Positions 5,409 through 43,260 of a DNA stretch of 64,000 nt are shown here, in pieces. The position numbers and the translations under genes are program-made. The stretch spans positions 1 to 64,000 of IMG/VR virus record IMGVR_UViG_3300035498_000778. The stretch is one strand, 5' to 3'. A model generated the notes under the pieces. The model saw only the letters and a program-made list of their open reading frames with translations, had not been told where the DNA came from and searched no databases. The DNA is from a virus. Lineage: Duplodnaviria > Caudoviricetes. Position 1 is the stretch's first letter; every line of letters begins with the position of its first letter.

Positions 5409-5676
5409 TTTCCTCTCGGCTTTGTTTTTGTTTGGCTTCCTCAGAAGCTACTAAGCTTCTCTTATCATCTATCTGGTCTTCAAGCTCTTGATTGATATCT
5501 AGGAGCTTGGCTATAAAGATAGTCTGAGCGACTACACAGATTAGACTTACGATGCCATATATGACTGTATAGACAGGATGTTTCTTCGCAAGCTCTTTGG
5601 ACATCTCGAACTTGTCTTTCCATACATTGACATAGCCGTTTGCTAAGGACTTTAAGATGTTTAATAATGTTTTCAT
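5392..5676 (-). CDS. small single-TM early protein (cargo of cassette copy A)
   Basis: Start re-called at ATG 5676 (AGGAGGT SD); hydrophobic VIYGIVSLICVVAQTIFI. Confidence 0.75.
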   Translation of the reverse strand: MKTLLNILKSLANGYVNVWKDKFEMSKELAKKHPVYTVIYGIVSLICVVAQTIFIAKLLDINQELEDQIDDKRSLVASEEAKQKQSREETNKVD

Positions 5677-5809
5677 AATTATACCTCCTATGGTATGTAA
5701 GATGCACATCCTTATATATTGGAACATAGAAACGATGTGCTAATATTAATTTCTATATTCACAATTATAATATATAATTAAATAGTATGCTATTACGGTA
5801 AATAACAAA
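5668..5809 (-). repeat. cassette copy A: early promoter + pseudoknot leader + RBS + first 3 codons
   Basis: 142 bp, 139/142 identical to 43119..43260 in inverted orientation. Confidence 0.95.
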
Positions 5810-5813
5810 ATAA

Positions 5814-5827
5814 TTATATATTATAAT
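5814..5827 (+). promoter_or_regulatory. early promoter core TTATATATTATAAT, divergent from cassette A
   Basis: Exact core motif. Confidence 0.65.
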
Positions 5828-5897
5828 TTTGGCTCGTTCAGTAACATTATATATAAAACTTGGTTGTCATGATGTAATGAAAGGTGGTGTAATATGG

Positions 5898-6107
5898 ATG
5901 TGCTATTTAATAATTATTATTGGTATATTGTTATTTACGACGCCAGTAAGTAAATTTTTAGTGAGTATATGGGAGCTGATTATGGATATTATAATTTCAT
6001 TAATAGCGTTTTTGACGGTGCTATTGACGTTGTTAATAGGTTTTATAATCGACGGTATACATAATATGCTCTTAAAGCTTTTTAAATTTAAGGAGGATGT
6101 TTTATGA
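5898..6107 (+). CDS. small hydrophobic membrane protein
   Basis: Two hydrophobic stretches; stop overlaps next start (ATGA); start uncertain. Confidence 0.55.
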   Translation: MCYLIIIIGILLFTTPVSKFLVSIWELIMDIIISLIAFLTVLLTLLIGFIIDGIHNMLLKLFKFKEDVL

Positions 6108-6748
6108 TTAAAACTATCAATTTAAACGAAGGTATAAATACAAATGTACGTTATGACTGGGACCAAGCAGCCGTGCTAGTATCTAACATTGACGGCGAAA
6201 TGGATGGATACAGTGATATGTATAAGGGTACAAAGTTGTTTGACTTCTATGCTGAGTTATGTGAGTTTGTGGATATAACACCACAATCATCCAGTGATTA
6301 TATCATGGTTGGGTATACTTATATACAGGAAATGATTGACGAAGCAGCAGAGTTATTCAATCTATCATATGACGAGGGTATGAGTATGTTTTGCTTAAAC
6401 AGAAACATTAAGTTTTCTGAAGGTGTATATGAAGCTAGCAAGATGAGTATCCCCATAGTCACAGATAATTTTGACTTACTCAACAATATCAATACAGAGT
6501 TATATTCAAACTACTTGGTTTGCTTATCACCTGTATACACTCGTAGGTTTAGTGAAAAACAAGTACTACAATGCATTGAAGATAAAGAGTTAAAGGAATT
6601 ATTTAGGTCCGTGAGTCCTTGGATTGATGATTGTGATGCTGAGGATATTGAGTTAAATGAACATAATGAGGTTTATCTTGTGCAAAATTGTAATGGTAAG
6701 CTAAAGATGTTCAGAATAACACTACTTCCAAAACATGATTCAATGTAA
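6104..6748 (+). CDS. hypothetical protein
   Basis: 214 aa, AAGGAGG SD, followed by terminator 6761-6787. Confidence 0.8.
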   Translation: MIKTINLNEGINTNVRYDWDQAAVLVSNIDGEMDGYSDMYKGTKLFDFYAELCEFVDITPQSSSDYIMVGYTYIQEMIDEAAELFNLSYDEGMSMFCLNRNIKFSEGVYEASKMSIPIVTDNFDLLNNINTELYSNYLVCLSPVYTRRFSEKQVLQCIEDKELKELFRSVSPWIDDCDAEDIELNEHNEVYLVQNCNGKLKMFRITLLPKHDSM

Positions 6749-6858
6749 GTATTATTTAATTAAGAGAGAACTGGGTTCTCTCTTTTTTGCATATTTTTAG
6801 TTAAGAGCAACAATACTGTAAAATAAATAACTTTAAAAAATTATGGAGGTAAATAAGT

Positions 6859-8178
6859 ATGGAAAAAATTACAACCAAAGAATTGATGGAGCAGTACAAT
6901 GATGTGAAGGATGGTATTCAAACAATAAAGCAAATGATTGATTTGAATATCGAGGCTAATTATGGCTTAAAACCTGAACCTGTATTGACAGCTATCAATA
7001 AGTATAGAGAGACAGATTTTAAGTCTCTAAGTATTGATGAACTCAATGATGTCTTTAATGAGTTTGTATCAATGTCTTTAAAATCTTCAGAAAGTTCAGA
7101 TTTCGAAACAGGTTACAATGCGTTGGATGTAGAATCTATCAAAGACGGAGAAGAAGATCCTAGATATAATTACATCATAAGTTTTCGTGATGAAATCGTA
7201 AAAGATGTGACCACTCTTGAAGATATGGAGGCGAACCTCAAAGAGATTGAGGAAGAAGTCAAGAAGGCTAATGATGAGTATTTTACATATATTAATTCAG
7301 AAGAATACCGTGAAAAGAAGCAACAAGAAATAGAAGATTTAAGAACACGAATAGCGGATCTTCCTGATGGTCCTAAGAGAAAGGAGCTAGAATCTATGCT
7401 AGAAACATTGGAAGATTGCGTAAGTAACGATTACATTTTTAACAGACTGATTGATTCTGATGGTATAGTTAATGATGCTGAGATTCATTCCATTGTCAGA
7501 TCATTCTTCGATCACAATTCATCTAAAATTATTATGAATAAGTATATTAGAAAATGTATAAAGTTAGGTCTTCATGTGGACACATACAAGAACTTTTTCA
7601 ATATTGAGGAAAACATGGAGAATAGATCCGATCTTGTAAATAAAGGAATATATGTATACAACAATTTACTACTTTCTCATTTTGTGAGATTAGTATCTTA
7701 TTGTGATCCAAATAATGAGAGAGAAAGACTTGTGATAGGCGAATTCTTGAAATTCCTAATCAAGATAAGTCAAAATAAATTCAGTAGTCGCGATGATGAA
7801 ACCGATGCTGCTAACATAGTTAATAGATTCTGTGGACTTTTCACAGCTGCAGGATATTATGAAAAGTTCCGTTTAGATAACAGAACTCATCCACTACATA
7901 ACGCTAGATTAGATTCTGAACAAGAAAAGCGTAATGGATATATAGATGAGATAGCAGAACTAATCACTAAAATAAAAGAAGTAAATGGAGAGATCCCAGA
8001 AGATCTACCTAATGCGGATGATGATTTTAGTTATACTACAACACATTCACTATATGAGTATCTATGTTCATATAAAAAGATATATGATGATATTCTTGCT
8101 AGCAAGATAACAAACTCTGTAAGTGATGAAACTGCAGACAAAACTGATTCTGAATCAAATAATGAGATTTCTGAGTAA
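6859..8178 (+). CDS. hypothetical acidic coiled-coil protein
   Basis: 439 aa, GGAGGT SD, late promoter AACA-ATACTG-TA at 6809-6820. Confidence 0.8.
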   Translation: MEKITTKELMEQYNDVKDGIQTIKQMIDLNIEANYGLKPEPVLTAINKYRETDFKSLSIDELNDVFNEFVSMSLKSSESSDFETGYNALDVESIKDGEEDPRYNYIISFRDEIVKDVTTLEDMEANLKEIEEEVKKANDEYFTYINSEEYREKKQQEIEDLRTRIADLPDGPKRKELESMLETLEDCVSNDYIFNRLIDSDGIVNDAEIHSIVRSFFDHNSSKIIMNKYIRKCIKLGLHVDTYKNFFNIEENMENRSDLVNKGIYVYNNLLLSHFVRLVSYCDPNNERERLVIGEFLKFLIKISQNKFSSRDDETDAANIVNRFCGLFTAAGYYEKFRLDNRTHPLHNARLDSEQEKRNGYIDEIAELITKIKEVNGEIPEDLPNADDDFSYTTTHSLYEYLCSYKKIYDDILASKITNSVSDETADKTDSESNNEISE

Positions 8179-8184
8179 TACAAA

Positions 8185-8220
8185 TAATATAGTAGATACC
8201 ATATGGTATCTACTATATTA
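8185..8220. terminator. 36-bp perfect palindrome/terminator
   Basis: TAATATAGTAGATACCAT|ATGGTATCTACTATATTA. Confidence 0.8.
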
Positions 8221-8233
8221 AATATTTTTTCGA

Positions 8234-8245
8234 TTATATATTATA
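8234..8245 (+). promoter_or_regulatory. early promoter core
   Basis: TTATATATTATA. Confidence 0.65.
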
Positions 8246-8281
8246 TCCGTGATTATAAATATAATCGTAATTTAATTGAAT

Positions 8282-8336
8282 TAGTATTGACGCTGAAAGA
8301 AGCATACGCGTTAAGACTATAAAACTATTTTGCTTC
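8282..8336 (+). promoter_or_regulatory. predicted H-type pseudoknot 5' leader (copy G)
   Basis: P1 TAGT-A-TTGACGC/GCGTTAA-G-ACTA; loop GAAGCA pairs with downstream TGCTTC; followed by CATAGGAGG SD. Confidence 0.6.
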
Positions 8337-8358
8337 ATTATCATAGGAGGAATTTAAT

Positions 8359-9312
8359 ATGATTACACTAAACAAAAAAGCAGCAAAAGACAGTTATGAA
8401 GACATAAAGCAAACGATGATGGCGTTTAAAAAGGAGGTGTGTTATGGAGACGGGGATCGTGATAGTTCTGGAGACTACCTTGAGCTTTATCAAATAAAAA
8501 GAAAACATAAACTTGGTGCAGCAAGGGTTGTAGCTATGGACAATGATATCTACGTTATAAACTATGGTGCACAGTGGTACGATTCTGAAATGACATATGG
8601 TGCTCAAAACCCTGATCAAGAAACTGACCATCGCCGCAGGGAAAGATGGGATGCAGATGAAGTCGGGCTTATATCATCAATATATAGAGGTAGAAAGATG
8701 ATAAGACATATGTGCTATCCAATCACCAGTGAATATTCAAAATTTGATATGTCTATTATCGACGAAGATCTTGAGTTTATACCATCTACTAATAAAAGTT
8801 TAGAAGACATAATCACAGAACAGAAAATCATACTAGTGTATAACACCATTGATGGAATAACTTATACATTCCAATTTGTTCACGGCGATGGACGCCTATT
8901 AACAAATGATGAGTCTGATGAATTAGTAGCTGCAATGTATAAAAATACAGATAACAAAAAACAAGCCTTTATTGATACTTTCCAAATGATGTGTGATAAC
9001 GAACTAGTGAAAAGTATAAATGAGGTTGCTAGCACGATGATCGACATGAATAAACCATTCATTGACGCTTTAGCTGAATTCATTAAATCACGTGATTTAT
9101 GCGTGTTTTGTAATATGGATGTTACAGACAGTTCAGGTACATATATCACTTACAGACATTTTTATGATAAGCTTCCATTAAACCCAATAGAGAGTTATGC
9201 ACTACAAATACTTCATGACTTTAAACATGTTGCGTTAGACGAAAGCGGAATTTATACTGATCTATCATACAACGATGTAACCACAATCGTCTATAGTCGC
9301 TGTATTCAGTAA
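8359..9312 (+). CDS. hypothetical early protein
   Basis: 317 aa, AGGAGG SD, early promoter. Confidence 0.8.
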   Translation: MITLNKKAAKDSYEDIKQTMMAFKKEVCYGDGDRDSSGDYLELYQIKRKHKLGAARVVAMDNDIYVINYGAQWYDSEMTYGAQNPDQETDHRRRERWDADEVGLISSIYRGRKMIRHMCYPITSEYSKFDMSIIDEDLEFIPSTNKSLEDIITEQKIILVYNTIDGITYTFQFVHGDGRLLTNDESDELVAAMYKNTDNKKQAFIDTFQMMCDNELVKSINEVASTMIDMNKPFIDALAEFIKSRDLCVFCNMDVTDSSGTYITYRHFYDKLPLNPIESYALQILHDFKHVALDESGIYTDLSYNDVTTIVYSRCIQ

Positions 9313-9334
9313 AACAATAAATTTATGGTAACTA

Positions 9335-9364
9335 AAATGTGGGTTCTGTAGAACCCACATTTTT
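9335..9364. terminator. bidirectional terminator
   Basis: AAAATGTGGGTTCT-GT-AGAACCCACATTTT. Confidence 0.8.
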
Positions 9365-10356
9365 TATTTTAAAACTAAGGGATACCTTTGTCCGAATTCA
9401 TCTACAGCAGTATTGTTGTTTCGATTTATCTTAAGTTCTCCCTTAATTGGTAAAGGATAATCATACAATACATTTCCATTTTCATCTTCGGCTATGTATT
9501 CATAATCTCCAGTTTCATCATCATATAATACGGAGATAGTAACATTATTATTCTCATATTTAAGATATAATTCTCGTTCTCTATCTTCTTCACTAGTCTC
9601 AGTTGTATCTAGACCCTGCATGATATCGTTATTTAAATCATCCATTGTATATTCTTCATAATCAGAATAATCATCGTTATTATTGTAAGTCATATCCGCA
9701 TCTAGTATGCTATTTCTACCTCTCTTGAATAATTCATTCATGAAGGTTGATGCATACTGATTCATGTCCATTTGACCTGTATTAGATTCCTTTATGAACT
9801 TTTCTCTTTCCTTAATATTTAATTCAGCTATCATTTTTTTGGCTGCAATTAATTCCTTTACAACCTGCATACTAACAGTACGCGCAGATGTAATAGATTC
9901 AATCAAATCTGTCATATATTTTGTTACACCACGTGCACTGGATTTAGACGCTTTCATATTGTTGTATTCCTTAGTTAAATCTTCAACGAATCTGTTATGC
10001 TCTAAGTACATACTTTTTAGAATTCCAATTTCTGTATCGAACTCTTTATCATAGTCTGTTAATCCATCCTTAGTTTTTTTGTGTTTTCCTTTTCCCTTAA
10101 TAGATAGATTACTGAAGTCATCATCTGTGTACTTTTCTGTTCGTTTCGCGCTATTATTTATTTTCTTAGTAATTGCTGAAATCCAACAATCTGTATCATC
10201 ATTATCATCTTCTTTAATACTTGATCCTCTTGATGGTTCAAGTGACATGTTTGCTGTTTCTGCAAGAATTGTCTCAGATAATGACTTTGTATCCATATTA
10301 TCGATTTCATTTAAATCTTCAACGATTTTTTTAGATTTATTAATTTCCTCACTCAT
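9364..10356 (-). CDS. hypothetical protein
   Basis: 330 aa, GGAGGAGG SD, TACA-N6-TA at 10388-10399 (minus). Confidence 0.8.
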   Translation of the reverse strand: MSEEINKSKKIVEDLNEIDNMDTKSLSETILAETANMSLEPSRGSSIKEDDNDDTDCWISAITKKINNSAKRTEKYTDDDFSNLSIKGKGKHKKTKDGLTDYDKEFDTEIGILKSMYLEHNRFVEDLTKEYNNMKASKSSARGVTKYMTDLIESITSARTVSMQVVKELIAAKKMIAELNIKEREKFIKESNTGQMDMNQYASTFMNELFKRGRNSILDADMTYNNNDDYSDYEEYTMDDLNNDIMQGLDTTETSEEDRERELYLKYENNNVTISVLYDDETGDYEYIAEDENGNVLYDYPLPIKGELKINRNNNTAVDEFGQRYPLVLK

Positions 10357-10471
10357 TTTATAAGTCCTCCTCCAAGTTATTTTTGTTTAATAAATTGTAA
10401 ATCTATATAATTTAATATAAATATTTAAGATATGTAAGCAACATTTAATTAACCGATAAGGAGGGAGATAT

Positions 10472-11200
10472 ATGAGTTCAAGTTTAATGAGATCAGATGG
10501 AATAGATTTATATCTAAATACAGATTACATGGAATTTTATATTCCTGATTATTATTTCGCTGATAATTGCAAATATGCGATTGATTATGGTGCTACAATT
10601 GAAGTCTTCGGAATTTTCTGTGTCGGAATATTTGAAAAGGATAAGCTTAAAGAAATGAAGTTGCTCGAAATTCCAATGAATCTGACAATTCAATCATATG
10701 ATATTGAGATTAGAACCGTAGAGTTTAAGAGTGGACCTATGAAGTGTAGAGTAATGAAATTTATAAAAGGACAAAAGATTATGCCAGCTACATATATTCA
10801 AAAATCATCACACGTTGTTACGTTTATAAAGATGATTCTTAATGGTTATCTACCTTTATTCGTTCCTTATAATGAAGTATACAATATGCTGCTGGGTATA
10901 TGTAAAATGCACAAAGTAAATTTGGGTGTTCCGAACTACGTTCTTGAGATGATGATATCTGACTTATATAGAGATAGGTCGGATCCTACTAAAAAGTTTG
11001 CTATAACGTATGGTAAAGATTCCAAGGTTTCGGACTATGATTACCAAACGTGTAACATCCGTAAAGCATGTCAATATGCATCAACATTCTCTGCAATATC
11101 ATTCGAGGATATAGATACTATGATAACAGCATCTTTGAACAGAAGCGCTCAGGGAAAAGAAGAACCGTTTAGTCCTATGGAAGAAATCATAAAGTTCTAG
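10472..11200 (+). CDS. stand-alone RNA polymerase beta' C-terminal subunit (probably virion RNAP)
   Basis: VNLGVPNYVLEMMISDLYRD and NIRKACQYASTFSAISFEDIDTMITASL resemble RpoC C-terminal KHIEVIVRQM and [21 protein letters not shown]; late promoter at 10440-10451. Confidence 0.7.
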   Translation: MSSSLMRSDGIDLYLNTDYMEFYIPDYYFADNCKYAIDYGATIEVFGIFCVGIFEKDKLKEMKLLEIPMNLTIQSYDIEIRTVEFKSGPMKCRVMKFIKGQKIMPATYIQKSSHVVTFIKMILNGYLPLFVPYNEVYNMLLGICKMHKVNLGVPNYVLEMMISDLYRDRSDPTKKFAITYGKDSKVSDYDYQTCNIRKACQYASTFSAISFEDIDTMITASLNRSAQGKEEPFSPMEEIIKF

Positions 11201-11251
11201 GGACTAATTAGAAACATATAATTAAAAATTAATGAAAAAGGAGTTGGTTTT

Positions 11252-13123
11252 ATGCCTCAAACTGTACAAATCGTACCAAAGTATCAACACCCACATGTTG
11301 AAACATATGTTAACGATTATACTACTTTTGAAGACTCTACAAGTACAACAGCTGCCTCCAGCGGCAGAACATATCTAGCAGTCTTTCAATCGTCTAAGGG
11401 TATTGATAACAAGCTTGTGAAGATAGAGTCATCCACTGATTTTACATATGCATTTGGTAAGTCTGATTATCGTTATTACGGTCAGCCTCTAATGATGCCT
11501 ATTGCTGAATTAGAATCTGGCGCCAGTGTTTGGTGTATGAGAGTCATGCCAGAAGATGCTAAGTATGCTAATAGTGTGCTTTATCTAAATTATAAGACTG
11601 ATAGTAGTACTGGTAAGTTTATTATCAAGTTTACTGCTAAGGCGTTCACTGGTAGTGAAGCTTGTGCTGCATCCACACTAACAACTGCTGCTCTTTCTTC
11701 TAAGGATGAAGATCTAGGCGCAGAATGGACATCTGTTCCTGTTATGCTAATTAGAGCAAACGGTAGAGGAACTTATGGTAATGACTATAGATGGAGAATC
11801 ACTGTAAATAGTAAGCTAGAGAAGGAATACTCAATCAAGATGTTTAGTTTTGAAGCATTAGTTTCTGACGTTTCTAATAGCTTGACATCAGCTGAATTAA
11901 CATCCGCATCTGTTCTACTTCCAACACGTCATGAAGTATCTACATACATAAATGATATTATGGATGAAACAGATAAGTCCAAGTACCAAGTTGAATTTGA
12001 ATGTCTAGATTATAATCTAGAGGATGTTTATACAGCTTATTCTGAGTTTGTTGAAAGTCTTCCTGATGATCTAAAGACATCTAGCTCTATCCCATCACTT
12101 GATCAATTTGACCCATTCTTTGGTCTAATGCCTCTAAGCACATCAAGCGTTTTACCTAACATTGAAATGTCTGATGACGAGGATGCTCTAAAAATTGATA
12201 ATGCTGAGGGTATCGCATTGCTAGGTGGTAATGATGGTGATAATAGTGAGACTACTAAGACTAATCTATATGTCAGCGCATTTAATGGCGACATAGACAG
12301 TAAGATTTTAGTACCAAGAAGAACTCCAGTTGATGCTCTATTCGATGCTTCTTATCCATTTGAAGCTAAGAGAGCACTAGCTAAGCTAGCAAAGTATAGA
12401 GAAGATGCAATACTTTATCTAGATGCCGGCACCGACGTTACAAGTACTAGTGGTATAGAGACAGTGATCAATGATTACAGCACTTCTGAATTTGCTAGTA
12501 ATTACATAGTGAAGGATTTCCAACACTACACAGTTAGAGACCTAACATCTAGACGTCGTGTAGTAGTTTCTATGACTTATCTATACGCACAAAAGCTAAC
12601 AGCTCATCTAGATACTTATGGTATTCATAAGCCATTTGTTAAGAGCTATTGTCAACTAACTGGTCATATAAAGGATTCTCTAGAACCATGTATTGAGATT
12701 ACAGATATGGATCTAAAGGATAAGCTATACACAAATAGATTTAACTACTTTGAAGCAATTGATGAGAATCTATTCCAAAGATCATGTCAAAATACTGCAC
12801 AAACTGCAAACAGTGATTTGCTTGAAGAATCTAATATGCGTGTTCTAATCTACTTAAAGTCTAATCTTGAAAGAGATTGTATTGATGATCTATATAACTT
12901 CTCATCTCTTGAAGATAGAAATAGATTTACTAGACTTGCTATGGCTAAGTATAGTCCTATGGTTGGCGTTTCTCTTGAATCATTGAATATCTACTTCGAT
13001 CAAAATGAATGGGAACTTGAGCGTTCTATTCTTCACTGCTACGTATCCGTTACATTCAGAGGAATTCATAAGAGAACTATTGTTGAGATTGATGTCAACA
13101 AGCGTAGTCTAGAGACAGAATAA
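11252..13123 (+). CDS. tail sheath protein
   Basis: HPHVETYVND N-terminus, SSKGIDNK, FGKSDYRYYGQP, WCMRV, GRGTYGN, C-terminal sheath domain; precedes tube; late promoter 11213-11224. Confidence 0.85.
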   Translation: MPQTVQIVPKYQHPHVETYVNDYTTFEDSTSTTAASSGRTYLAVFQSSKGIDNKLVKIESSTDFTYAFGKSDYRYYGQPLMMPIAELESGASVWCMRVMPEDAKYANSVLYLNYKTDSSTGKFIIKFTAKAFTGSEACAASTLTTAALSSKDEDLGAEWTSVPVMLIRANGRGTYGNDYRWRITVNSKLEKEYSIKMFSFEALVSDVSNSLTSAELTSASVLLPTRHEVSTYINDIMDETDKSKYQVEFECLDYNLEDVYTAYSEFVESLPDDLKTSSSIPSLDQFDPFFGLMPLSTSSVLPNIEMSDDEDALKIDNAEGIALLGGNDGDNSETTKTNLYVSAFNGDIDSKILVPRRTPVDALFDASYPFEAKRALAKLAKYREDAILYLDAGTDVTSTSGIETVINDYSTSEFASNYIVKDFQHYTVRDLTSRRRVVVSMTYLYAQKLTAHLDTYGIHKPFVKSYCQLTGHIKDSLEPCIEITDMDLKDKLYTNRFNYFEAIDENLFQRSCQNTAQTANSDLLEESNMRVLIYLKSNLERDCIDDLYNFSSLEDRNRFTRLAMAKYSPMVGVSLESLNIYFDQNEWELERSILHCYVSVTFRGIHKRTIVEIDVNKRSLETE

Positions 13124-13146
13124 TGATAAGAGAGGAGTGATTTATT

Positions 13147-14103: not shown

Positions 14104-14114
14104 AGATTATAATA

Positions 14115-14154
14115 AAATATATTTCCTAGGTCTTAAGACCTAGGAAATATATTT
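14115..14154. terminator. 40-bp perfect palindrome, bidirectional terminator
   Basis: AAATATATTTCCTAGGTCTT|AAGACCTAGGAAATATATTT between convergent tube and portal genes. Confidence 0.85.
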
Positions 14155-14162
14155 GTAACTTG

Positions 14163-25139: not shown

Positions 25140-25586
25140 TTACCATATCAAACCTCTCATGAGGTTTTCGAACTCAGGATTGAAGTTACGAACACATATA
25201 CCCAACCCTTTAAGTTTATCGTGGGTAACAGCGATTGTTTCATCATATGTGTAGTTTTCATCTATCTCCAGATAAGCAAACTCACCTACCTCATCAGCTA
25301 TAGCTTCCATGAGTTCAACATCAGCTGCTTCACATACAGCGGATACAAGCTCGACAAACTCCTTGACATAATCTCCAGGAATGATGTACTCAGAAGTCGT
25401 ATTAAGCACAGGCTCACCGTACATATCTATACCCTCTGAGTTGAATCTCGCATATTTCTCTGCTAATAGTGGTATGATGTTGTGGCTTCTCATATAGTTA
25501 GAAACAGCATCCCATACAGATGTACCCTCTGCGATTACCTTGCCCTCTTCGTTGCGTATAACAACATTATTTTGTGTAACGATCAT
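25140..25586 (-). CDS. hypothetical early protein, paralog of 25731..26225
   Basis: Start re-called at ATG 25586 (GGAGGT SD); N-terminal half aligns with neighbour. Confidence 0.75.
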   Translation of the reverse strand: MIVTQNNVVIRNEEGKVIAEGTSVWDAVSNYMRSHNIIPLLAEKYARFNSEGIDMYGEPVLNTTSEYIIPGDYVKEFVELVSAVCEAADVELMEAIADEVGEFAYLEIDENYTYDETIAVTHDKLKGLGICVRNFNPEFENLMRGLIW

Positions 25587-25613
25587 ATTAATTACCTCCA
25601 TGATCTTTATTAT

Positions 25614-25658
25614 ACATCCTGAATGTAAGATATAGAACGGATGTTCGATTCTATATCT
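25614..25658 (-). promoter_or_regulatory. predicted H-type pseudoknot 5' leader (copy D)
   Basis: AGATATAGAA-tcga-ACATCC-g-TTCTATATCT-tacattca-GGATGT. Confidence 0.7.
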
Positions 25659-25730: not shown

Positions 25731-26225
25731 CTACTTTGTCTTAGGATAGAATTTTGGGAATTCTTCAACAGTAGTTGTTGATAGAGCGCCTGGTTCTAGA
25801 GTCTTAGTGAGAGCTTTTACTAAGCGTGGCTCCAGTGGAACATAGTCAACACATAGACTCATTACTGAACCGTCAGGGTTATACCTCTCGGTGATAGTAA
25901 CAGTGAAGTACGTAATACCACTGAGTCCGTTGATGATAACTGGTGACTTTACGAATAGTCGTGCACCGGTTTTATCACACGCAAGTTCTATCAGTGACGA
26001 AAGGTCCTTCGCGATGTACCTATCAGGGATGAAGTACGTGGTTGTGTGCTCGTAGTCATAGTCTCTGAAGTAGTCGACAGCAAACCATGCATCGTCACCC
26101 ATTTTCACAGGAACGATACCGTTACGGTTGATGAAGTCTCCTATAGCTAGCCAGTAGTCATCACCCATACATACGATGTTGTCTTGGCCGTCCACAATTA
26201 CGAGCTGTTTCTTTGCTTCAAGCAT
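25731..26225 (-). CDS. hypothetical early protein (cargo of cassette copy C)
   Basis: Start re-called at ATG 26225 (AAGGAGGT SD). Confidence 0.75.
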   Translation of the reverse strand: MLEAKKQLVIVDGQDNIVCMGDDYWLAIGDFINRNGIVPVKMGDDAWFAVDYFRDYDYEHTTTYFIPDRYIAKDLSSLIELACDKTGARLFVKSPVIINGLSGITYFTVTITERYNPDGSVMSLCVDYVPLEPRLVKALTKTLEPGALSTTTVEEFPKFYPKTK

Positions 26226-26345
26226 GATTATACCTCCTTGGTATATGTATATGCACATCCTTATACTGGAACATAGAAACGATGTGCTAATATTAATTTC
26301 TATATTCACAATTATAATATATAATTAAATCTCAAGTTATTACGG
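26223..26345 (-). repeat. cassette copy C: bipartite early promoter + pseudoknot leader + RBS
   Basis: Near-identical to copies A/B from the promoter core through GATGTGC; CCGTAAT box retained, spacer diverged. Confidence 0.9.
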
Positions 26346-31941: not shown

Positions 31942-31971
31942 TTATAAAAATGAATAAGGAGTTGAGTACAT

Positions 31972-33042: not shown

Positions 33043-33115
33043 ATGAATATTGAAAATGGACGCGAATTATTGTTTCGCGTCCATTTTATCTTTTTATGAA
33101 AAAGGAGTGAATCAC

Positions 33116-34183: not shown

Positions 34184-34216
34184 TGTAAGAAGAGGGTTTT
34201 ACCTCTTCTTACATTA
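34183..34216. terminator. terminator hairpin (AAGAAGAGG family)
   Basis: TAATGTAAGAAGAGG-GTTTTA-CCTCTTCTTACATTA. Confidence 0.75.
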
Positions 34217-34266
34217 TATGGCGAAACAATTTAATAAAATTAGAATAAGAAAAAGGAGTGATATTT

Positions 34267-35760: not shown

Positions 35761-35777
35761 TTGCGAGGTGATAATAA

Positions 35778-38700
35778 ATGATAAAAATCGCAGACTATAC
35801 GCAAAATAATATGTTCGAACTAATTTCCTTGTATAAGGATATAGATAGGAACATCTGCACAACAGGATTTAAGAATGCGTGTTATGGCATCAACGAATCT
35901 GCGTTAGATTCTATCATGTCATATAGCGTAGAACACATGGATTTTTCCAAGCCATTGAATTCATCTATTGAAAATTTGATGACCATAGAAGATACGGATG
36001 ATCTTGTATTATTCTATGAGAATATAGTTTCATCGTTCAATCTTAACAATAGACCGATTACCGTAGGTTTAATGGATACTGATGCTATATCCAAGATACG
36101 TCCACAATACCTAAATTTATATGTTAGAGAATTGAATAAGACATTTAAGAAATGGGCTGCAGGTTCTATTAAGGCAGACACAGTAGATATGGAACGTGTT
36201 AAAACGATATGTATGAAATTGGCTGATAAGACTAAGAAACAAGTTGTATGTACAACACTACCTAGTGCAGAAGCTTTGATGCTTCAAACACGTAATCCGG
36301 ATATGTTCACAGCAGACGCTGATTTCATATCTAACATTACAGTCCCATTTGTTCGTAACTTTAATATAGTTAAAGGCCAATTAATAAATGAGGCGCAGGA
36401 TATTCTAAGAGCTACGAATATGGTCAAAGATCAACTTCAATCTCTTACGGAGGCAGGTTCAAAGTTAAAACTGGACCCTGAAACAAAGAGATTATTTGAT
36501 TTTTATGTGTTTAATACCGTAAAGTTTTCATATGATATGATGACGTATATAGTTTCAATGACCATTCAGAGAATTGGTGCGTATGTTTACAACATGAATA
36601 CATTTTGTAAGTTGTATAATACGATTCATAACTTCTACCCAGAAGGCTCCAGAATACTACACGAGAATGCAATAGACAGTGGTCTTGATGACTTAGATGA
36701 CACAACTTTAATGAACGCTATGATATATAATGACACAACGTTTTTATATCCAATGATACACCAATGTCTTGATAGAAATAGCTTTGAGGCCGATCATCTA
36801 ACTAGATATGTAAATACTGATGATATCATTGATAATATCAATGGATATGATTGTGATGGTGAATATGATAAAAATTGCTATGAACAAACACTTGCTGTTT
36901 TAAAAATAGTAAATGAAAAAATGCGTGGCATGTATGAAGCGTCTAAGGATCCAAACATGACCGTTGATGATATCATAAATCGATCTGGTGCTAACGATGC
37001 GTTTACTGACAAGTTTGGACCTCTAGTAGCGGCTATTCCCGATACAAGCGCATATACAAGGGATCTAAATTCTGATAATGGTAGTCCACAAGCGGCTTTA
37101 AAAATGATAAAGACTGAACTAGCTAATTATGATACAAATATTTCGAAAATCGCAGCTGCATGCCAAGCTATATACAAGAATATATCCAGCATGCAGAAAT
37201 CTTACAAATACAATGTAAATGGTCAATTCGGATCTTCTGAACAAGCCGATGAACTTCTACAGTTTGCTGATGAATTTGAGCAACAGATTAAAGATATATC
37301 TATTAATCTTATTAAGGCATTCATTCAGAGACTCAAAGGCTTAAAGGGAGCTATGGAATCTATTGACGTTTTTCAGGAAAAAGTATGTTTGCCTATTGCT
37401 GTATACGATCGTGATGACGAATATTTAATAGAGGCTTATAATTCTATAATTGAAGAGAAAACCATTTTAGAGCGTGGTGCTTTTGAGTCATTATTGATGG
37501 ATTACAACTCTTATAGATCAAAAGTGGAACGTGGTGTAGAACTAGTATATGAAGCTAATACCAATGAAAAGAAAAACGATAATGATACTGATAAGAAAAA
37601 TGCTAGTAACGATAAATCTAGTGACAAGTCGGATGATAGTACCGATAATCCACAGGTTAATATATCATCTAATACCGATCAACAAAACGAGACTGATACT
37701 AATAATAGTGACAAGAATACTGGTGATCAGAACAACAGTAATACTACTGATAATTCAAATAACGACAATAACCAACAAGGCAAGACTGATGCTAAGCCAT
37801 CTGATACGAATAATTCCAATAATCAGAATAATTCTCAGTCTAATGCTCAAAATAATACCAATAACACAACTGATAACAACTCTCAAAATAATCAAAACAA
37901 GAAGGGTATTATTAGAGAAGCTTTAGATAAGTTTATGAAGTTTGTCAAAGATTTAATAAACAAGTTTAAAGGTAAGGTTAAGAAACTTGGTCCTAAGGCT
38001 AACTATGTCAAAAACAACAAGGATAAGATATTAAATGCTATTAATGAGAAAACATCACTAAAATTGCAACCATATTATCCTGCGTTTGATTATAAACGCT
38101 TCGTGGCAGACATGAAAACATTTGAAAATAATATAAAAAGTAAAGCTATTGAATCTGCCAAGAAATCTCAGGGAGAGTTCAGATCAGATATATTTGGTTT
38201 CATATCTACTAAACAAATAGGCAATTTCACTTTGGAAAATGATTTTGGTAAATTTATAATGGCGTATTATTCTTCAGGAAATAATATAGACGACTTCGAA
38301 AAAGGTCGTGTCGTAACGGGCGATGCGTTGAAGAATGATATGACTAATGAAATAGAATATATATCCAACTATGAGACTATATGTAGTGAAGTTGCTAATA
38401 CTTGTAACAGAATATTAAGATATATTGATGCAGAATTTGCTAATAAACTGGGTATTGAACCTAGTAATACGAATAATAATACACAGAATAATAGCAATAC
38501 AAATAATAATGCTACTGATAATAATAACAATACACAGAATAATAGTCAGAATACAAATGAGTCTGTAATACTTAACGAATCTGTTTTGTTCGAAGACGGA
38601 GAGCAGACTAATAGTAATGACAATAATAATTCCGAAGAAAGTATTATTAGCAAGGTTACTGGGGATGTTAGAGTCTTCGGAACGACCATCCTTACTGTTT

Positions 38701-38936
38701 TGGAAAAGCGTTTTATGAATGATACTAAGATTATGTATACTATTTTGAATGGCGGCGAACAGTCTAATAATCAAAATAACAATAATGACAATAATAATGC
38801 TAACAATTCCAACAACAGTTCAAACAACGATAATAACAATAACGACAATAATAATGACAATAACTCTAATAACGACCAGTCTAATAATCAAACTAATGAT
38901 AACAGTAATTCTAACAATCAAAACAATAATAATTAA
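35778..38936 (+). CDS. large virion protein with Asn-rich low-complexity tracts
   Basis: 1052 aa; internal VYEA then N-rich linker then KKGIIREALDKFMKFVKDLINKF family helix. Confidence 0.75.
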   Translation: MIKIADYTQNNMFELISLYKDIDRNICTTGFKNACYGINESALDSIMSYSVEHMDFSKPLNSSIENLMTIEDTDDLVLFYENIVSSFNLNNRPITVGLMDTDAISKIRPQYLNLYVRELNKTFKKWAAGSIKADTVDMERVKTICMKLADKTKKQVVCTTLPSAEALMLQTRNPDMFTADADFISNITVPFVRNFNIVKGQLINEAQDILRATNMVKDQLQSLTEAGSKLKLDPETKRLFDFYVFNTVKFSYDMMTYIVSMTIQRIGAYVYNMNTFCKLYNTIHNFYPEGSRILHENAIDSGLDDLDDTTLMNAMIYNDTTFLYPMIHQCLDRNSFEADHLTRYVNTDDIIDNINGYDCDGEYDKNCYEQTLAVLKIVNEKMRGMYEASKDPNMTVDDIINRSGANDAFTDKFGPLVAAIPDTSAYTRDLNSDNGSPQAALKMIKTELANYDTNISKIAAACQAIYKNISSMQKSYKYNVNGQFGSSEQADELLQFADEFEQQIKDISINLIKAFIQRLKGLKGAMESIDVFQEKVCLPIAVYDRDDEYLIEAYNSIIEEKTILERGAFESLLMDYNSYRSKVERGVELVYEANTNEKKNDNDTDKKNASNDKSSDKSDDSTDNPQVNISSNTDQQNETDTNNSDKNTGDQNNSNTTDNSNNDNNQQGKTDAKPSDTNNSNNQNNSQSNAQNNTNNTTDNNSQNNQNKKGIIREALDKFMKFVKDLINKFKGKVKKLGPKANYVKNNKDKILNAINEKTSLKLQPYYPAFDYKRFVADMKTFENNIKSKAIESAKKSQGEFRSDIFGFISTKQIGNFTLENDFGKFIMAYYSSGNNIDDFEKGRVVTGDALKNDMTNEIEYISNYETICSEVANTCNRILRYIDAEFANKLGIEPSNTNNNTQNNSNTNNNATDNNNNTQNNSQNTNESVILNESVLFEDGEQTNSNDNNNSEESIISKVTGDVRVFGTTILTVLEKRFMNDTKIMYTILNGGEQSNNQNNNNDNNNANNSNNSSNNDNNNNDNNNDNNSNNDQSNNQTNDNSNSNNQNNNN

Positions 38937-39022
38937 TTAAGTATTAATATAGATATAAAGATGGCATTTTAAGATAGAGAGGGCTAATCCTCTCTATCTT
39001 AAATATCTAACGTAAAATTTAA

Positions 39023-39036
39023 TTATATATTATAAT
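39023..39036 (+). promoter_or_regulatory. early promoter core
   Basis: TTATATATTATAAT followed by TGTGAA as in cassettes; CGTAAAA upstream. Confidence 0.7.
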
Positions 39037-39095
39037 TGTGAATAAGATAAAATAATCAACAATATATTGGTTTTAAAAAGGAGGTATCAATACCA

Positions 39096-39302
39096 ATGTC
39101 AAATTCACAGTACAAGTCTAATGCATACATTTTTAGTAAATTAAGTAATAATCTCGGTGTTGAACAGAGATTAAATAATAATAACGCATGGGCGTTTGAA
39201 TTAATGTGTTTAATGGAGGATAAGCATGAAGAAAAAAACTGTAATTTCAGAGTTGAAAGAGTACACACCAACAAGTATACAACCTTACGTAGAGCTAGCT
39301 GA
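39096..39302 (+). CDS. small hypothetical early protein
   Basis: AAGGAGGT SD; overlaps next ORF by 77 nt. Confidence 0.45.
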   Translation: MSNSQYKSNAYIFSKLSNNLGVEQRLNNNNAWAFELMCLMEDKHEEKNCNFRVERVHTNKYTTLRRAS

Positions 39303-39510
39303 GGTTTTAATAAATAATGAGCATGTGCAGCGTGCTGCTAGTAAAATAGGTGAAAGTATTCTAGGTAAGTACGAAGATAACAATGAGACAAGATCCGTGT
39401 CGGATTTTGTTTATGGTAATTATGTTTCAAAAAAGAAAGTCAAGAAATTAAAGAAACATAAAAAGAATTCAACTTGGTATTCAGTACATGATGATAGAGA
39501 TATCATATAA
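39226..39510 (+). CDS. small protein with Lys-rich tail
   Basis: GGAGG SD; KKKVKKLKKHKKN; terminator 39521-39547. Confidence 0.7.
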   Translation: MKKKTVISELKEYTPTSIQPYVELAEVLINNEHVQRAASKIGESILGKYEDNNETRSVSDFVYGNYVSKKKVKKLKKHKKNSTWYSVHDDRDII

Positions 39511-39600
39511 ACCCATAGTAAAAAGATGGATATGATCCATCTTTTTTCTCCTGAAAACGAATAAACAGTAACATAACAACTTATGAAAGGAGTTTTTAAT

Positions 39601-40869
39601 ATGGTCAAAACATATAGTATTAAGGCTAAGGAACGTAAAGTAGAAGCTGTAGGTGGTAAATATTGTGTAGTCGAAAATATGGGCGATAGCACAGTATTTA
39701 TTTCTACAACGAGTAATATTGTTCCTAGCGCTGCAGGTGTTATAGCGATTGGTCCAAAGAGTGTTAAGTCTTTGATTGTTGATCCTCAGTACAAGTGGAG
39801 TTCTGCTGAACTTGCATTTGACTGGGTAGCTGATTTGTATGTTACATCAACTGATACAACAACAATCGAAGTTTCCGCAAGTGTAGAAAATTGCTATGCT
39901 TATATTGTAAACGGCGATTATGATACATCTGCACTAATAAACGACAACGCATCATCTGTCGAAACCGCATTTGAAATCAAGTTAACACAAGATATTGTTA
40001 GAGCTTTTGAAATTGCAGAAGGTGATAGTATGACTATCGACCTTAATGGTACAACATTATCAAACAAGGAAAATCAAAAGACTATAATTAACTCTGGTAC
40101 GCTTGTTATTAAGGACACATCAAGTGACAAGTCAGGTGTAATACAAAGTAATAGTAAGAAGACTGCTGTAATTCAAAATACAAGCACAGGTAGAATAATC
40201 ATCGAGAGTGGCGTGATTGAGCACACTATCGAAGATCCGGGTTGCTATACTATAGATAATGCTGGTATTCTCGAAATCAATGGCGGTACTGTTAGAGCTT
40301 CCAGTGGCAATGGATCACTGATTAGGAACATAGGTCCTAACGCAAAGACTATCGTTAATGGTGGTTTACTAACTAATAAGTGGATTACACTTAAGAACGA
40401 TGACGAAGGAACAATCATTGTTAATGGCGGTACTATTGAAACTACAGCTGCTGGTGGTAGTGGAATACAAAACTGGGGCACAGCAACTATTAATGGTGGT
40501 AAGATCACTTCCGTTGATGGTTCTGCAGCTATATATCAGCTAACATGGTCAGATGATTATGCTTCTAATCTAGTATTTAATAACGGAACTGTTAATGGTA
40601 CTGTTATGGTTAGACAGTACACAGACTACACAGGTTCACAAGTTCCTAAGTTCGTACTTAATGATGGATCTATCAATGGTGATGTTCTTCTAGGTAACAA
40701 CGAAGGTAGTGTATATGGTATTGCTGAATTTGAAGTTAATGGTGGTACTATCAACGGTGAAGTCTTTACTTATGATAACAATAACGATGATGGTAGAGAA
40801 AATATCATTACTGTTAATGCAGGATCAATTCTTTTAAATGGTAAGACAGTTTCTGCAGGAAATGAATAA
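39601..40869 (+). CDS. beta-helix repeat protein (putative fibre/adhesin)
   Basis: Repeated (I/V)NGG(T/K)(I/V) motifs and IDLNGTTL; late promoter 39564-39575; start re-called. Confidence 0.65.
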   Translation: MVKTYSIKAKERKVEAVGGKYCVVENMGDSTVFISTTSNIVPSAAGVIAIGPKSVKSLIVDPQYKWSSAELAFDWVADLYVTSTDTTTIEVSASVENCYAYIVNGDYDTSALINDNASSVETAFEIKLTQDIVRAFEIAEGDSMTIDLNGTTLSNKENQKTIINSGTLVIKDTSSDKSGVIQSNSKKTAVIQNTSTGRIIIESGVIEHTIEDPGCYTIDNAGILEINGGTVRASSGNGSLIRNIGPNAKTIVNGGLLTNKWITLKNDDEGTIIVNGGTIETTAAGGSGIQNWGTATINGGKITSVDGSAAIYQLTWSDDYASNLVFNNGTVNGTVMVRQYTDYTGSQVPKFVLNDGSINGDVLLGNNEGSVYGIAEFEVNGGTINGEVFTYDNNNDDGRENIITVNAGSILLNGKTVSAGNE

Positions 40870-40964
40870 ATATATTATACGAAGAGGAATAAACCTCTTC
40901 GTATTTTGTTATTTTTAATTATCATTTTACAATTAGATAATAAATCAGAAAAGGAGATTGAAAT

Positions 40965-43079
40965 ATGAAAGCTAAAGTTATTATAGACAACGGTGAGGAG
41001 ATAAGAAAGAGTAAATTCTTATCAAAATGGAAAAAAGATATGATGAAGAGTATGCTTCAGATGAATCCACAATGGAGTGAAGAGAAAATAAGTGATATCA
41101 TAGATGATATGATAATCGAAAGATTCCAAAACCCAGAGGTGCTATGCGATAATAATTATACACACGAGTCAAAAAGAAGTAACTTGTTAGACGTCGTTGA
41201 CTGGGTAATGGATAAGAAACCTATTATTGCAGGAAATGGAACTTTTTATTTGAATCAAGATCAAGCAATTAATCCGAACGCTGTAATGGTAAATTCATTT
41301 CTAGCAGAGCGTAAAGCTATAAAGAAAAAGATGTTCTCAATTGAGGATGACACCAGCGAAGAATATGCGGCATGTGATAGAGATCAGGGTAATAAGAAAA
41401 GGTTAGCGAATTCATATTATGGAGGTTCAGGTGCTGAAACGTCAGCGTTTTATTCAAAGTGGAGTGCTCCTGCAACTACACTAACTGCACAGTCGGTAAT
41501 TAGTACCTGTGAGAGTACGATAGAAGCATTTTTAGGTAATAACTTCTTATTCTTAGATTTAGATGAGTGTATCCACTGGATGAATTTGGTGTTGAAAGAA
41601 AATCCTAAATCAGATAAATGGCTCACAAGTCATAATATAGATGATGTATTTGAGCGATTAGTGTCTAGATTCTATGATTATAACAACAGGTATGATCATA
41701 TTTTATATGAGTATCTATCGAATTGTAATCAAGATGAATTGAACGCCATTTATTATAAGAATAATATAACTGCGTTTACAAGTGAGAACTCATATGTATG
41801 TGATTTATACGAGAAGGTGTTCTCCAATGTTCAGATATATGAGACTGCAGATGATATAGCTTCTGTACCTGAGTTCTTTATATCCAAGCATTTAGACTTA
41901 GATGAAAATGCTATTATTAAAAAATGGAATTTATTTGTTAATGAATCGGCATTTCTTAATCCTAATAGTATCCCAGAAGCTGTCGCGTCATATATGGACG
42001 AGATTAAAAAGTTATATATGAAATACGTTTACATCGATTATATAATCGCAGATAAAATATATAGATTAAGGAAGTTCAAGCGAGATGCGGTTGTAATCGT
42101 TGATACTGATTCATGTATAATACAAATGGACACATGGACAGAATTATGTAGAAATTATATAATGAAATCAGATTATGGAAGAAATCCTGACATGAATACG
42201 TATATAGCTATCAACTCTATGACTGCTATCCTAACGGATGTTATTAGAGACATATTATATAAATATAGCCATTATACTAATATATGTGAAGAGCATTGTC
42301 GAGTTTTCAATATGAAGAACGAATTTTTATTCAGTAAGCTCATAATCGGAACTAAAAAGAAAAGATACATGAGCTTGATAAAAGTACGTGAAGGCACATT
42401 GCTCACAAAAGAAAAGTACGACGTTAAAGGTTTTGACTACATGAAGAGTGGAACCTCTATACAGGCAAAAGAATTCTTCGATCATATAGTTAAAGATTTA
42501 ATGTTATACACAAAGGATATAGATGTGTCATGTATTCGTAAAGAGTTAGAGATATTCACTAATAATATTTATAATGATTTACAAGCAGGGAATACTGGGT
42601 TCTTACCATTATTAAAGGTTAAAGAAGCAGGAAATTACGCTGATCCTTGGAGAGAAGCAGGTGTTCGTGGTGCTGTAACGTGGAATATATTGTATCCTGA
42701 CGAAGGTATAGAATTTCCAGTCAGTGTATCTGCGTTAAAGCTTACTATTAACGATGAATCCGATATAGCAGAATTACAATATACAGATCCAGAAATATAT
42801 GAAAAACTACTAGAGGTTTTGAATCATGAAATGACATACAAGGTTAGTAAAAGTGGAAAACGAGAATCGAGAGGAATTGCTATATTATGCATCCCACAAG
42901 GTGCTAAGATACCTGAATGGACTAAACCTTATATTGATTACGAAACAATCATTAATACAATAATCGGTAAGTTTAAAGGCGTAAGTAATTTGCTAAAGAT
43001 TAAATCTATAAAGGTAGGAAAGAAGATAGGATCCAATGATAGAAAGAGTGAGAAGTTATCTAACATAATAGGATTCTAA
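40965..43079 (+). CDS. family B DNA polymerase, C-terminal half (motifs B and C, thumb)
   Basis: QGNKKRLANSYYG (motif B), VIVDTDS (motif C), KKKRY, DVKGFD. Confidence 0.85.
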   Translation: MKAKVIIDNGEEIRKSKFLSKWKKDMMKSMLQMNPQWSEEKISDIIDDMIIERFQNPEVLCDNNYTHESKRSNLLDVVDWVMDKKPIIAGNGTFYLNQDQAINPNAVMVNSFLAERKAIKKKMFSIEDDTSEEYAACDRDQGNKKRLANSYYGGSGAETSAFYSKWSAPATTLTAQSVISTCESTIEAFLGNNFLFLDLDECIHWMNLVLKENPKSDKWLTSHNIDDVFERLVSRFYDYNNRYDHILYEYLSNCNQDELNAIYYKNNITAFTSENSYVCDLYEKVFSNVQIYETADDIASVPEFFISKHLDLDENAIIKKWNLFVNESAFLNPNSIPEAVASYMDEIKKLYMKYVYIDYIIADKIYRLRKFKRDAVVIVDTDSCIIQMDTWTELCRNYIMKSDYGRNPDMNTYIAINSMTAILTDVIRDILYKYSHYTNICEEHCRVFNMKNEFLFSKLIIGTKKKRYMSLIKVREGTLLTKEKYDVKGFDYMKSGTSIQAKEFFDHIVKDLMLYTKDIDVSCIRKELEIFTNNIYNDLQAGNTGFLPLLKVKEAGNYADPWREAGVRGAVTWNILYPDEGIEFPVSVSALKLTINDESDIAELQYTDPEIYEKLLEVLNHEMTYKVSKSGKRESRGIAILCIPQGAKIPEWTKPYIDYETIINTIIGKFKGVSNLLKIKSIKVGKKIGSNDRKSEKLSNIIGF

Positions 43080-43118
43080 TAACTAAGGGTAAGTTGTACA
43101 TGGGCATCCATGTACAAC

Positions 43119-43260
43119 TTTGTTATTTACCGTAATAGCATATTATTTAATTATATATTATAATTGTGAATATAGAGATTAATATTAGCACATCGTTTCT
43201 ATGTTCCAGTATATAAGGATGTGCATCTTACATACCATAGGAGGTATAATTATGAAAACA
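43119..43260 (+). repeat. cassette copy B: early promoter + pseudoknot leader + RBS + first 3 codons
   Basis: 139/142 identical to reverse complement of 5668..5809; pseudoknot 43168-43224. Confidence 0.95.

Follow-up and report, generated by a model that had tools for sequence, protein, structure and literature searches.

A repeated early-promoter and leader cassette in front of unrelated accessory genes of an AR9-like jumbo phage

The subject of this analysis is a short repeated cassette, consisting of a promoter and a transcribed leader, which lies in the first 64 kb (64,000 nucleotides, here called the window) of the IMG/VR virus record IMGVR_UViG_3300035498_000778. The record comprises 124,892 bp with 33.6% G+C and is about 52% complete. 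The phage is uncultured and belongs with the AR9-like jumbo phages; between its major capsid protein and those of the Bacillus phages AR9, PBS1 and BpSp and of Staphylococcus jumbo phages the identity is about 25%. Two RNA polymerase beta-prime-like open reading frames (ORFs), at 86504-87802 and 101969-104764 of the record, match PF00623, and no match to the beta subunit (PF00562) was found in the available half-genome. For comparison we used the cultured phage genomes KU878088 (AR9), MW218148, MN091626 (PALS_2) and KT895374 as well as IMGVR_UViG_3300045988_137032 (referred to as G001; complete, 261,692 bp), the sole IMG/VR relative found with the DNA polymerase (45% amino-acid identity).

The repeated cassette and its cargo genes

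Two copies of the cassette, A on the minus and B on the plus strand, are identical at 139 of 142 positions (98%, three differences). The identity extends through the start codon up to codon 3 (ATG AAA ACA) and is followed by complete divergence, exactly as the earlier note on this DNA had described. The alignment also bears out the third copy reported there, C, which is 89% identical from CCGTAAT to the ATG and precedes another unrelated gene. Two further copies had been overlooked, namely copy D, located further downstream in the record, and a decayed copy, C2, next to C. The core 24-mer of the cassette occurs three times in the window and not once in 100 shuffles. The features of these loci are as follows (window coordinates unless stated otherwise; S1 and S2 are the two predicted stems of the leader, SD the Shine-Dalgarno sequence, TSS the transcription start site).

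5668..5809, minus strand: cassette A; upstream (UP) element CCGTAAT 5792-5798, core ATATATTAT 5767-5775, predicted TSS G 5760
Within cassette A, minus strand: leader; S1 5749-5760 with 5722-5733, S2 5734-5740 with 5704-5710, SD hairpin 5681-5696, ATG 5674-5676
5392..5676, minus strand: cargo A, a 94-aa ORFan with one hydrophobic helix, ending at a bidirectional terminator (5379-5407)
5810..5831, plus strand: divergent early promoter, back-to-back with cassette A; predicted TSS 5831, small plus-strand ORF with ATG at about 5895
43091-43120: terminator of the DNA polymerase gene, before cassette B
43119..43260, plus strand: cassette B; UP element 43130-43136, core 43153-43161, predicted TSS 43168
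Within cassette B, plus strand: leader; S1 43168-43179 with 43195-43206, S2 43188-43194 with 43218-43224, SD hairpin 43232-43247, ATG 43252
43252..43545, plus strand: cargo B, a 97-aa soluble ORFan, followed by a terminator (43567-43587)
43651-44367: dUTPase gene, downstream of cargo B
26223..26345, minus strand: cassette C; UP element 26339-26345, predicted TSS 26307, ATG 26223-26225; leader with S1 26296-26307 with 26269-26280 and S2 26281-26287 with 26253-26259
25731..26225, minus strand: cargo C, a 164-aa ORFan
25584..25657, minus strand: C2 leader, a decayed cassette copy with a degenerate promoter core, preceding gene C2 (25140-25586)
25675-25710 and 25096-25122, minus strand: terminators near C and C2
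77057-77208 of the record: copy D, with a perfect promoter and a diverged leader (77099-77208)

The terminators which the earlier note had placed around these units are present at the five positions given above. Its statement that the cargo is unrelated holds as well: the proteins of cargo A and cargo B gave no BLASTP alignment at E<=100, and there is no detectable similarity among cargo A, B and C. None of the cargo proteins has a match in Pfam or PHROGs, and a search among 5.8 billion proteins returned for cargo C only itself and no homologue outside this phage species. Gene C2 is distantly paralogous to cargo C, with 21% identity in a pairwise comparison (E = 1e-7). Since the decayed cassette copy at this site precedes a paralogue of cargo C, this suggests that cassette and cargo were duplicated as one unit. 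The repeat, which is 125-142 bp long, is probably a shared regulatory front end of several small accessory early genes.

The near identity of A and B is genuine and not an artefact of the assembly, because both loci, together with their unique flanks, recur at 99.9-100% identity in public contigs that were assembled independently from other samples (the B locus in contig L036, the A locus in contigs L040, L157 and L159). A blastn search of the cassette against 50,697 phage records gave no match. A pattern scan of IMG/VR for the cassette leader returned seven sequences, which were rejected as they all lie within unrelated coding sequence.

Some further observations concern the arrangement of the loci. 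Two independent inverted-repeat pairs of cassettes are each about 37 kb apart (5760/43168 in the window, 37.4 kb; 86460/123602 in the record, 37.1 kb); the copies point away from each other in one pair and towards each other in the other, and the shared spacing may be coincidence. The dUTPase gene next to cargo B is found here in a relative of AR9 and PBS1, whose DNA contains uracil. The record itself opens with a perfect 127-bp direct repeat (window 1-127 and 172-298), which could be a tandem gene duplication or an effect of the assembly end.

The early promoter and the structured leader

In the Bacillus phage AR9, 41 early promoters which are read by the virion RNA polymerase have been mapped (Lavysh et al. 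2017, PMC5312081). Their consensus is AAATATATATTAT-(6N)-G, many of them carry ACCGTATTAAAA at about -39, and the promoter of g292 reads ...atatattataattgtG (Table S2 therein). In cassettes A to D the element CCGTAAT (-38 to -32) is followed by TTATATATTATAATTGT-G(+1), with the core ATATATTAT at -15 to -7, and all four promoters fit ATATATTAT-N6-G when compared with the AR9 consensus and with 39 mapped AR9 promoters. Judged by these matches, the upstream half of the cassette is an early promoter of the AR9 virion RNA polymerase type, and a start by this polymerase at G+1 is a prediction that is well supported by homology. A scan of the cassette loci for sigma-70 promoters gave no more sites than were found in shuffles. 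A sequence scan of the record further revealed about 18 intergenic promoters of the AR9 early type, and therefore the promoter half does not set the cassette apart; its distinctive part is the leader that the copies have in common. The anatomy of promoter, pseudoknot and ribosome binding site proposed in the earlier note is thus retained, with the amendment that its first part belongs to a general early promoter class of the phage, known from AR9.

The transcribed leader is 77-79 nt long and can form two interleaved helices from +1 onwards. Helix S1 pairs nt 1-12 GAAUAUAGAAAU with nt 28-39 GUUUCUAUGUUC, and S2 pairs nt 21-27 GCACAUC with nt 51-57 GAUGUGC. Nested folding yields two mutually exclusive structures, containing S1 or S2 and each of about -17.7 kcal/mol; as the two stems interleave, they can together form a predicted H-type pseudoknot (type 1 in the following). 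Half of the SD lies inside a third, small hairpin (AUACC-AUAGGA-GGUAU). We scored the pseudoknot by an exhaustive two-stem search with ViennaRNA energies against 200 dinucleotide shuffles, a procedure with a crude energy model. For cassette A the stem pair reached -19.6 kcal/mol versus -2.4 +/- 2.2 in the shuffles (z = -7.8). In copy D, S1 is identical to that of A, S2 is UGCAUC/GAUGCA and loop 3 has 33 nt (z = -4.6), and the C2 leader folds with S1 GAUAUAGAAU/GUUCUAUAUC and S2 ACAUCC/GGAUGU (z = -4.9). In each of these three cases none of the 200 shuffles was as good.

Copies D and C2 keep the topology of A, from whose S1 and S2 they differ by deletions that match on the two strands. The sole stem substitution specific to B, A9G, retains a G.U pair, and the differences between A and C are confined to loops or spacers. 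We therefore regard the fold as a prediction with modest comparative support. The conserved stems are located beyond +1 and have no U-tract, and the terminators found before B and at the end of each cargo unit are separate, non-repeated sequences. Rfam 15 gave no match at the gathering score across the window, and no relevant match at E<=10 for the leader loci of this phage or at E<=5 for SA1, PALS_2, BpSp and AR9. The CPK-1 class of pseudoknots is defined by an S2 of 6-7 bp, an L1 (loop 1) of 1-2 nt and the lack of an inter-helix spacer (PMC3835772). The cassette leader lies outside this class, as its S2 has 7 bp and its inter-helix spacer 0 nt but its L1 8 nt (nt 13-20).

A leader motif common to AR9-like phages

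The core UUUCUAUGUUCC of the leader is common to eight leaders of this phage. Its 10-mer TCTATGTTCC occurs eight times in the record, always in sense orientation and always upstream of a start codon: in A, B, C and D and in four additional leaders, E (motif at 54308), H (55181), F (77793) and G (78386). Two of the additional leaders lie in the window.

54176..54351, plus strand: leader E; early promoter with TSS 54217, loop GGAAC pairing with GUUCC of the motif (54308-54317), SD hairpin, ATG 54349 of a 48-aa ORF, followed by gene E2 (54590-55039)
55120..55218, plus strand: leader H; type-2 pseudoknot GGAUACG/CGUAUUC, loop CGGAAC pairing with GUUCCG, motif 55181-55190, SD hairpin GGG-UAGGAGG-CCC, ATG 55216

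Leaders E to H have a hairpin on the 5' side of the motif, with a loop (C)GGAAC which can pair with GUUCC(G). This gives a second type of predicted pseudoknot (type 2), and these leaders continue with the SD-displaying hairpin GGG-UAGGAGG-CCC.

In the form UUCUAUGAUCC the core recurs in leaders of other phages, namely of AR9 and BpSp, of ten Staphylococcus jumbo phages and of an IMG/VR relative. The sequence TTCTATGWTCC occurs 11 times in G001, 6 times in AR9, 14 times each in SA1 and PALS_2 and 10 times in BpSp, compared with 0-1 occurrences of the reversed control. In six AR9-like genomes none of 400 permutations of the same composition reached the observed count (permutation means 0.2-0.6). 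The Staphylococcus phage K, the Bacillus phage SPO1 and the Pseudomonas phage phiKZ have no copy, which argues that the motif is specific to the lineage and does not reflect a k-mer bias of the hosts. The intergenic copies are almost all in sense orientation and lie in leaders 20-60 nt before the SD, often behind a recognisable early promoter; the experimentally mapped leader of AR9 g292 is one of these.

In the Staphylococcus phages the motif occurs in the context of a hairpin with a 9-bp stem, the loop of which, GGAUCA, pairs with UGAUCC. Compensatory changes are seen in stem 1 of this structure (GACCUAAUG/CAUUAGGUC, GACUUAAUG/CAUUAAGUC, GGUCUAAUG/CAUUAGAUC); the type-2 pairs were read directly, since the MAFFT alignment of the two phage groups did not place stem 1 correctly. 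This unannotated, predicted pseudoknot leader is present in one to three copies in 10 of 10 Staphylococcus jumbo phages (L100:2215-2266; L097:2451-2502; L101:2152-2203; L154:3024-3075; L155:3010-3061 and 3642-3693; L156:3024-3075). It is about 52 nt long and lies before small hypothetical genes (SA1, PALS_2, Machias, S6, LY01 and others), often after a tiny SD-led upstream ORF (uORF; MKKILF). The pair GGAUC:GAUCC of the other phages and GGAAC:GUUCC of this phage constitute a compensatory swap. All eight copies here are the U variant, nearly all intergenic copies in the other phages the A variant.

Three other roles of the motif were considered and set aside. A promoter element was rejected because the sequence ttctatg is absent from -50 to +1 of all mapped AR9 TSSs, which points to an element acting at the RNA level, and no late promoter of the form AACA-N6-TA fits. 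That the AUG within the motif starts a uORF is unlikely, as no SD precedes it and its frame relation to the cargo varies between copies. Pairing with the 3' tail of 16S rRNA (UGAUCC with GGAUCA) was rejected for this phage, where all copies are of the U variant; it is also contradicted by the intramolecular partner, which covaries in the type-2 leaders. A literature search for the motif sequence returned only unrelated primers.

Similar sequences were noticed at further places. In G001 three genes (positions 78289, 159773 and 214015; L050-L051) use the ribosome binding site GGAGGATCATAGAAATG, whose spacer exactly complements the leader motif, and by sequence the motif-bearing RNAs could in principle pair with these sites in trans. 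In PALS_2 (MN091626, about 241200, minus strand) a tRNA gene has a copy of the motif next to it, and this copy is succeeded by GGGTAGGAGGCCC, the hairpin that also displays the SD in leaders F, G and H. Most long early 5' untranslated regions (UTRs) of AR9 contain an SD-like AGAAAGGAG or AAAGGAAGG 15-30 nt from the 5' end (g044, g087, g104, g132, g253, g270); these STAB-SD-like sequences may be the unnamed 'early UTR motif' of PMC5312081 (Fig. S3).

Exchange, function and comparison with known systems

Several observations lend partial support to an exchange of front ends and cargo. The same front end is found on unrelated cargo in A, B and C. The reverse case is seen at the D and E2 loci, which are paralogous (83% identical over 941 bp) with an identity starting 25 nt before the ATG; upstream of this point they are unrelated, D having a type-1 cassette and E2 lying behind the 48-aa ORF with leader E. 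The two genes are carried by a segmental duplication (window 54566-56098 versus record 77182-79301, 80-84% identity), which also contains three paralogous membrane-protein genes (starts 55216, 77828 and 78422), each with a type-2 pseudoknot leader. In G001 the DNA polymerase gene is directly followed by a homologue of 44475-45257, and cargo B and the dUTPase are absent there. The comparison of orthologous sites suggested in the earlier note is thus informative at site B alone, G001 being too rearranged at sites A and C. The earlier note had also pointed to junctions expected from an exchange between A and B. We found one such crosswise contig, L039 (950 bp, sample 3300043078), whose nt 1-153 are 100% identical to the A locus, comprising 11 nt of A-specific flank and all three A-type single-nucleotide polymorphisms (SNPs), and then continue into cargo B. 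A and B do not differ over their last 51 nt, and L039 may therefore have arisen by chimeric assembly. Contig L037 has a mosaic SNP pattern, the junctions in L036, L040, L157 and L159 are parental, and L037, L038 and L158 break inside the repeat. The borders of the cassette vary by copy (+9 in A and B, the ATG in C, about +36 and -25 in D) and no cargo is flanked by two copies; we therefore read the pattern as ordinary homology-driven exchange among similar leaders and not as a defined mobile element.

Taking these findings together, we think that the cassette is probably, though by no means certainly, an early-expression front end which also recombines secondarily; the function of the leader is a prediction. 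Each module would be a moron-like unit consisting of promoter, leader, ORFan and terminator. The virion RNA polymerase would start at G+1, and the nascent leader would fold into the pseudoknot, burying the 5' end, and present the SD in a small hairpin in a fixed context. Any ORF behind the leader would then receive a defined mRNA stability and translation rate, by analogy with 5'-terminal stabilisers (PMC3997798). The conserved 11-13-mer would probably be read by a lineage-specific factor, since the motif is conserved at the sequence level. Since the same 100-140 bp are found in front of many unlinked genes, they would also be substrates for homologous recombination or gene conversion, by which A and B may have been homogenised and front ends moved between cargo genes. 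Shuffling would in this case be a consequence of the repetition and not its primary function, because the conservation of the motif across distant AR9-like phages suggests that the leader is under selection as a regulatory RNA and not merely as a recombination handle.

Some points weigh against this explanation. The start site, the fold and the function are all predicted. The covariation comes from five type-1 copies, three of which are near-identical, and the energies of the pseudoknot were obtained with a crude model. Pairing of the 5' end is not general among the early leaders of this phage or of AR9, and 5' protection as a general rule for early leaders is not supported; we therefore propose the stabiliser role, by analogy, for the type-1 cassette leader alone. 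In the cultured phages coding regions contain about half of all motif copies, and the peptide specified there is often FYDP, a finding which a function confined to leaders does not explain. Finally, the motif provides one strand of a helix in type 1 and both a loop and part of a helix in type 2, which fits a purely structural role poorly.

A tentative possibility is that the leader is an operator, in which UUUCUAUGWUCC on a pseudoknot or hairpin scaffold is bound by a protein or RNA of the AR9 lineage that would co-ordinately switch translation or decay of a small early-gene regulon, much like the T4 RegA or the gene 32 pseudoknot operator. Among AR9-like phages, those of Bacillus and Staphylococcus as well as uncultured ones, conservation extends to the sequence and is not confined to the fold. 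Unrelated phages that infect the same hosts lack the motif, its intergenic copies are almost always sense, and the occurrence of a U variant here and an A variant elsewhere would be expected with a co-evolving phage-encoded partner. However, concerted evolution through gene conversion could likewise leave each phage with a single variant, the analysis yielded no candidate for the factor, and the available 125 kb encode no perfectly complementary RNA. An operator moreover overlaps with the front-end explanation and does not exclude it. The wider claim, that the motif on its leader scaffolds is the operator of an undescribed post-transcriptional control across the AR9-like lineage (Bacillus, Staphylococcus and uncultured gut phages), with the repeated cassettes as regulon and a lineage-specific factor, possibly one of the phage RNA polymerases, as reader, appears to us rather doubtful.

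The earlier note had read the cassette as a recombination handle of the kind formed by the early promoter stem-loop (PeSL) elements of T4-type phages, selected to capture, swap or excise accessory genes, such that recombination of A with B inverts 37 kb and of A with C excises 20 kb. As the main role of the cassette this seems unlikely. In its favour, A and B are 98% identical even at presumably neutral spacer positions in front of unrelated cargo, D and E2 combine common cargo with different front ends, L039 joins the A flank and SNPs to cargo B, L037 is mosaic, the syntenic site of G001 is without cargo B and the dUTPase, and the cassette has some of the features by which PeSL elements are defined (PMC2839356). 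Against this, with no cargo between two copies the geometry for mini-circles is lacking, excision between A and C would delete essential virion genes, five other contigs, from three samples, have only parental junctions, and L039 with its identical 51 nt may be chimeric. Nor can usefulness in recombination account for the persistence of the motif among phages with no more than 25% identity between their capsid proteins. The handle proposal is thus partly supported, by the swaps of cargo and front ends, by the presence or absence of cargo B and by the possibly chimeric L039; a promoter half of a general early class, a conserved regulatory motif and the lack of a defined mobile unit weaken it. 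The PeSL analogy is apt for the behaviour of the cassette, which, with no sigma-70 promoter and no terminator stem-loop, is not a member of this class.

It is improbable that the motif acts on the transcribing phage RNA polymerase as a pause, attenuation or put-like antitermination signal 25-50 nt past the early starts. Its position at +24 to +47 in A to D, AR9 g292, BpSp, SA1 and G001 (leader E, at +92, is an exception), its confinement to a lineage with an unusual two-RNA-polymerase system and its absence from -50 to +1 of the AR9 TSSs, which excludes a promoter element, would agree with such a signal. Several copies, however, are found in 3' UTRs or in leaders that lack an early promoter, neither a U-tract nor any other sign of termination is present, and the proposal is entirely speculative. 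A metabolite-sensing riboswitch with a small H-type pseudoknot aptamer before the SD, as in preQ1-I or SAM-II, is very improbable in spite of the matching topology beside the SD and an A-rich tract after the motif in the Staphylococcus phage copies, as no Rfam family matches even at E<=10, the cargo consists of unrelated ORFans without a shared pathway, stem and loop lengths differ widely between copies and a conserved alternative expression-platform structure is lacking.

Returning to the cassette as an early-expression front end, a short, uncatalogued and lineage-wide leader motif is now linked to the cultured phages AR9, BpSp, S6, PALS_2 and SA1. Its function is thus testable in Bacillus subtilis or Staphylococcus without the uncultured phage, and the cassette could become a ready-made early expression module for engineering AR9-like phages.

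The morons of lambdoid phages are autonomous insertions of promoter, gene and terminator. The modules described here resemble them as self-contained units between terminators, inserted among core genes and sometimes in antisense, and in their presence or absence, cargo B and the dUTPase being found here and missing in G001; classical morons, however, are without one common regulatory front end. With the early promoters of AR9 and PBS1 the cassette shares the core, the spacing to G+1 and the upstream CCGTAWT element, and with g292 also the start region ...TATAATTGTG and a leader containing UUUCUAUGAUCC. It differs in that the promoter is fused to a longer, repeated and structured leader, in a phage which is only distantly related.

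Among RNA elements, the gene 32 pseudoknot of T2 and T4, the founder of CPK-1 (PMC3835772), is likewise an H-type pseudoknot at the 5' end of an mRNA followed by an AU-rich stretch and the ribosome binding site; its L1 has 1-2 nt versus 8 nt here, and it serves one autoregulated gene whereas the present element serves many unrelated genes. The 5' mRNA stabilisers of Bacillus (5'-terminal stem-loops, STAB-SD, the SP82 polypurine sequence; PMC3997798) are comparable in that the predicted structure of the present leader starts from +1, in a low-GC phage with a strong SD, and the long AR9 early leaders with an SD-like AGAAAGGAG near the 5' end are a further parallel; in contrast to them, 5'-end pairing is not general among the early leaders.

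The closest parallel in organisation are the PeSL elements of the T4-type phages RB49/phi1, PST and nt-1 (PMC2839356, PMC4122927). There, too, an early promoter, a stem-loop, an SD and a start are repeated in intergenic regions before ORFans, are placed within conserved replication and virion blocks, even beside the DNA polymerase gene; the PeSL copies serve as exchange points between unrelated genes, as those described here may also do. The PeSL promoter is read by host sigma-70 and the one described here by the phage virion RNA polymerase, to judge from its sequence. Our stem-loops lie in the transcribed leader, where they form a predicted pseudoknot and not a terminator, and there are three to five close copies instead of about 50, with no cargo flanked on both sides and no evidence of mini-circles. 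Modular promoter-leader cassettes, known in T4-type phages, thus also organise accessory early genes of AR9-like jumbo phages.

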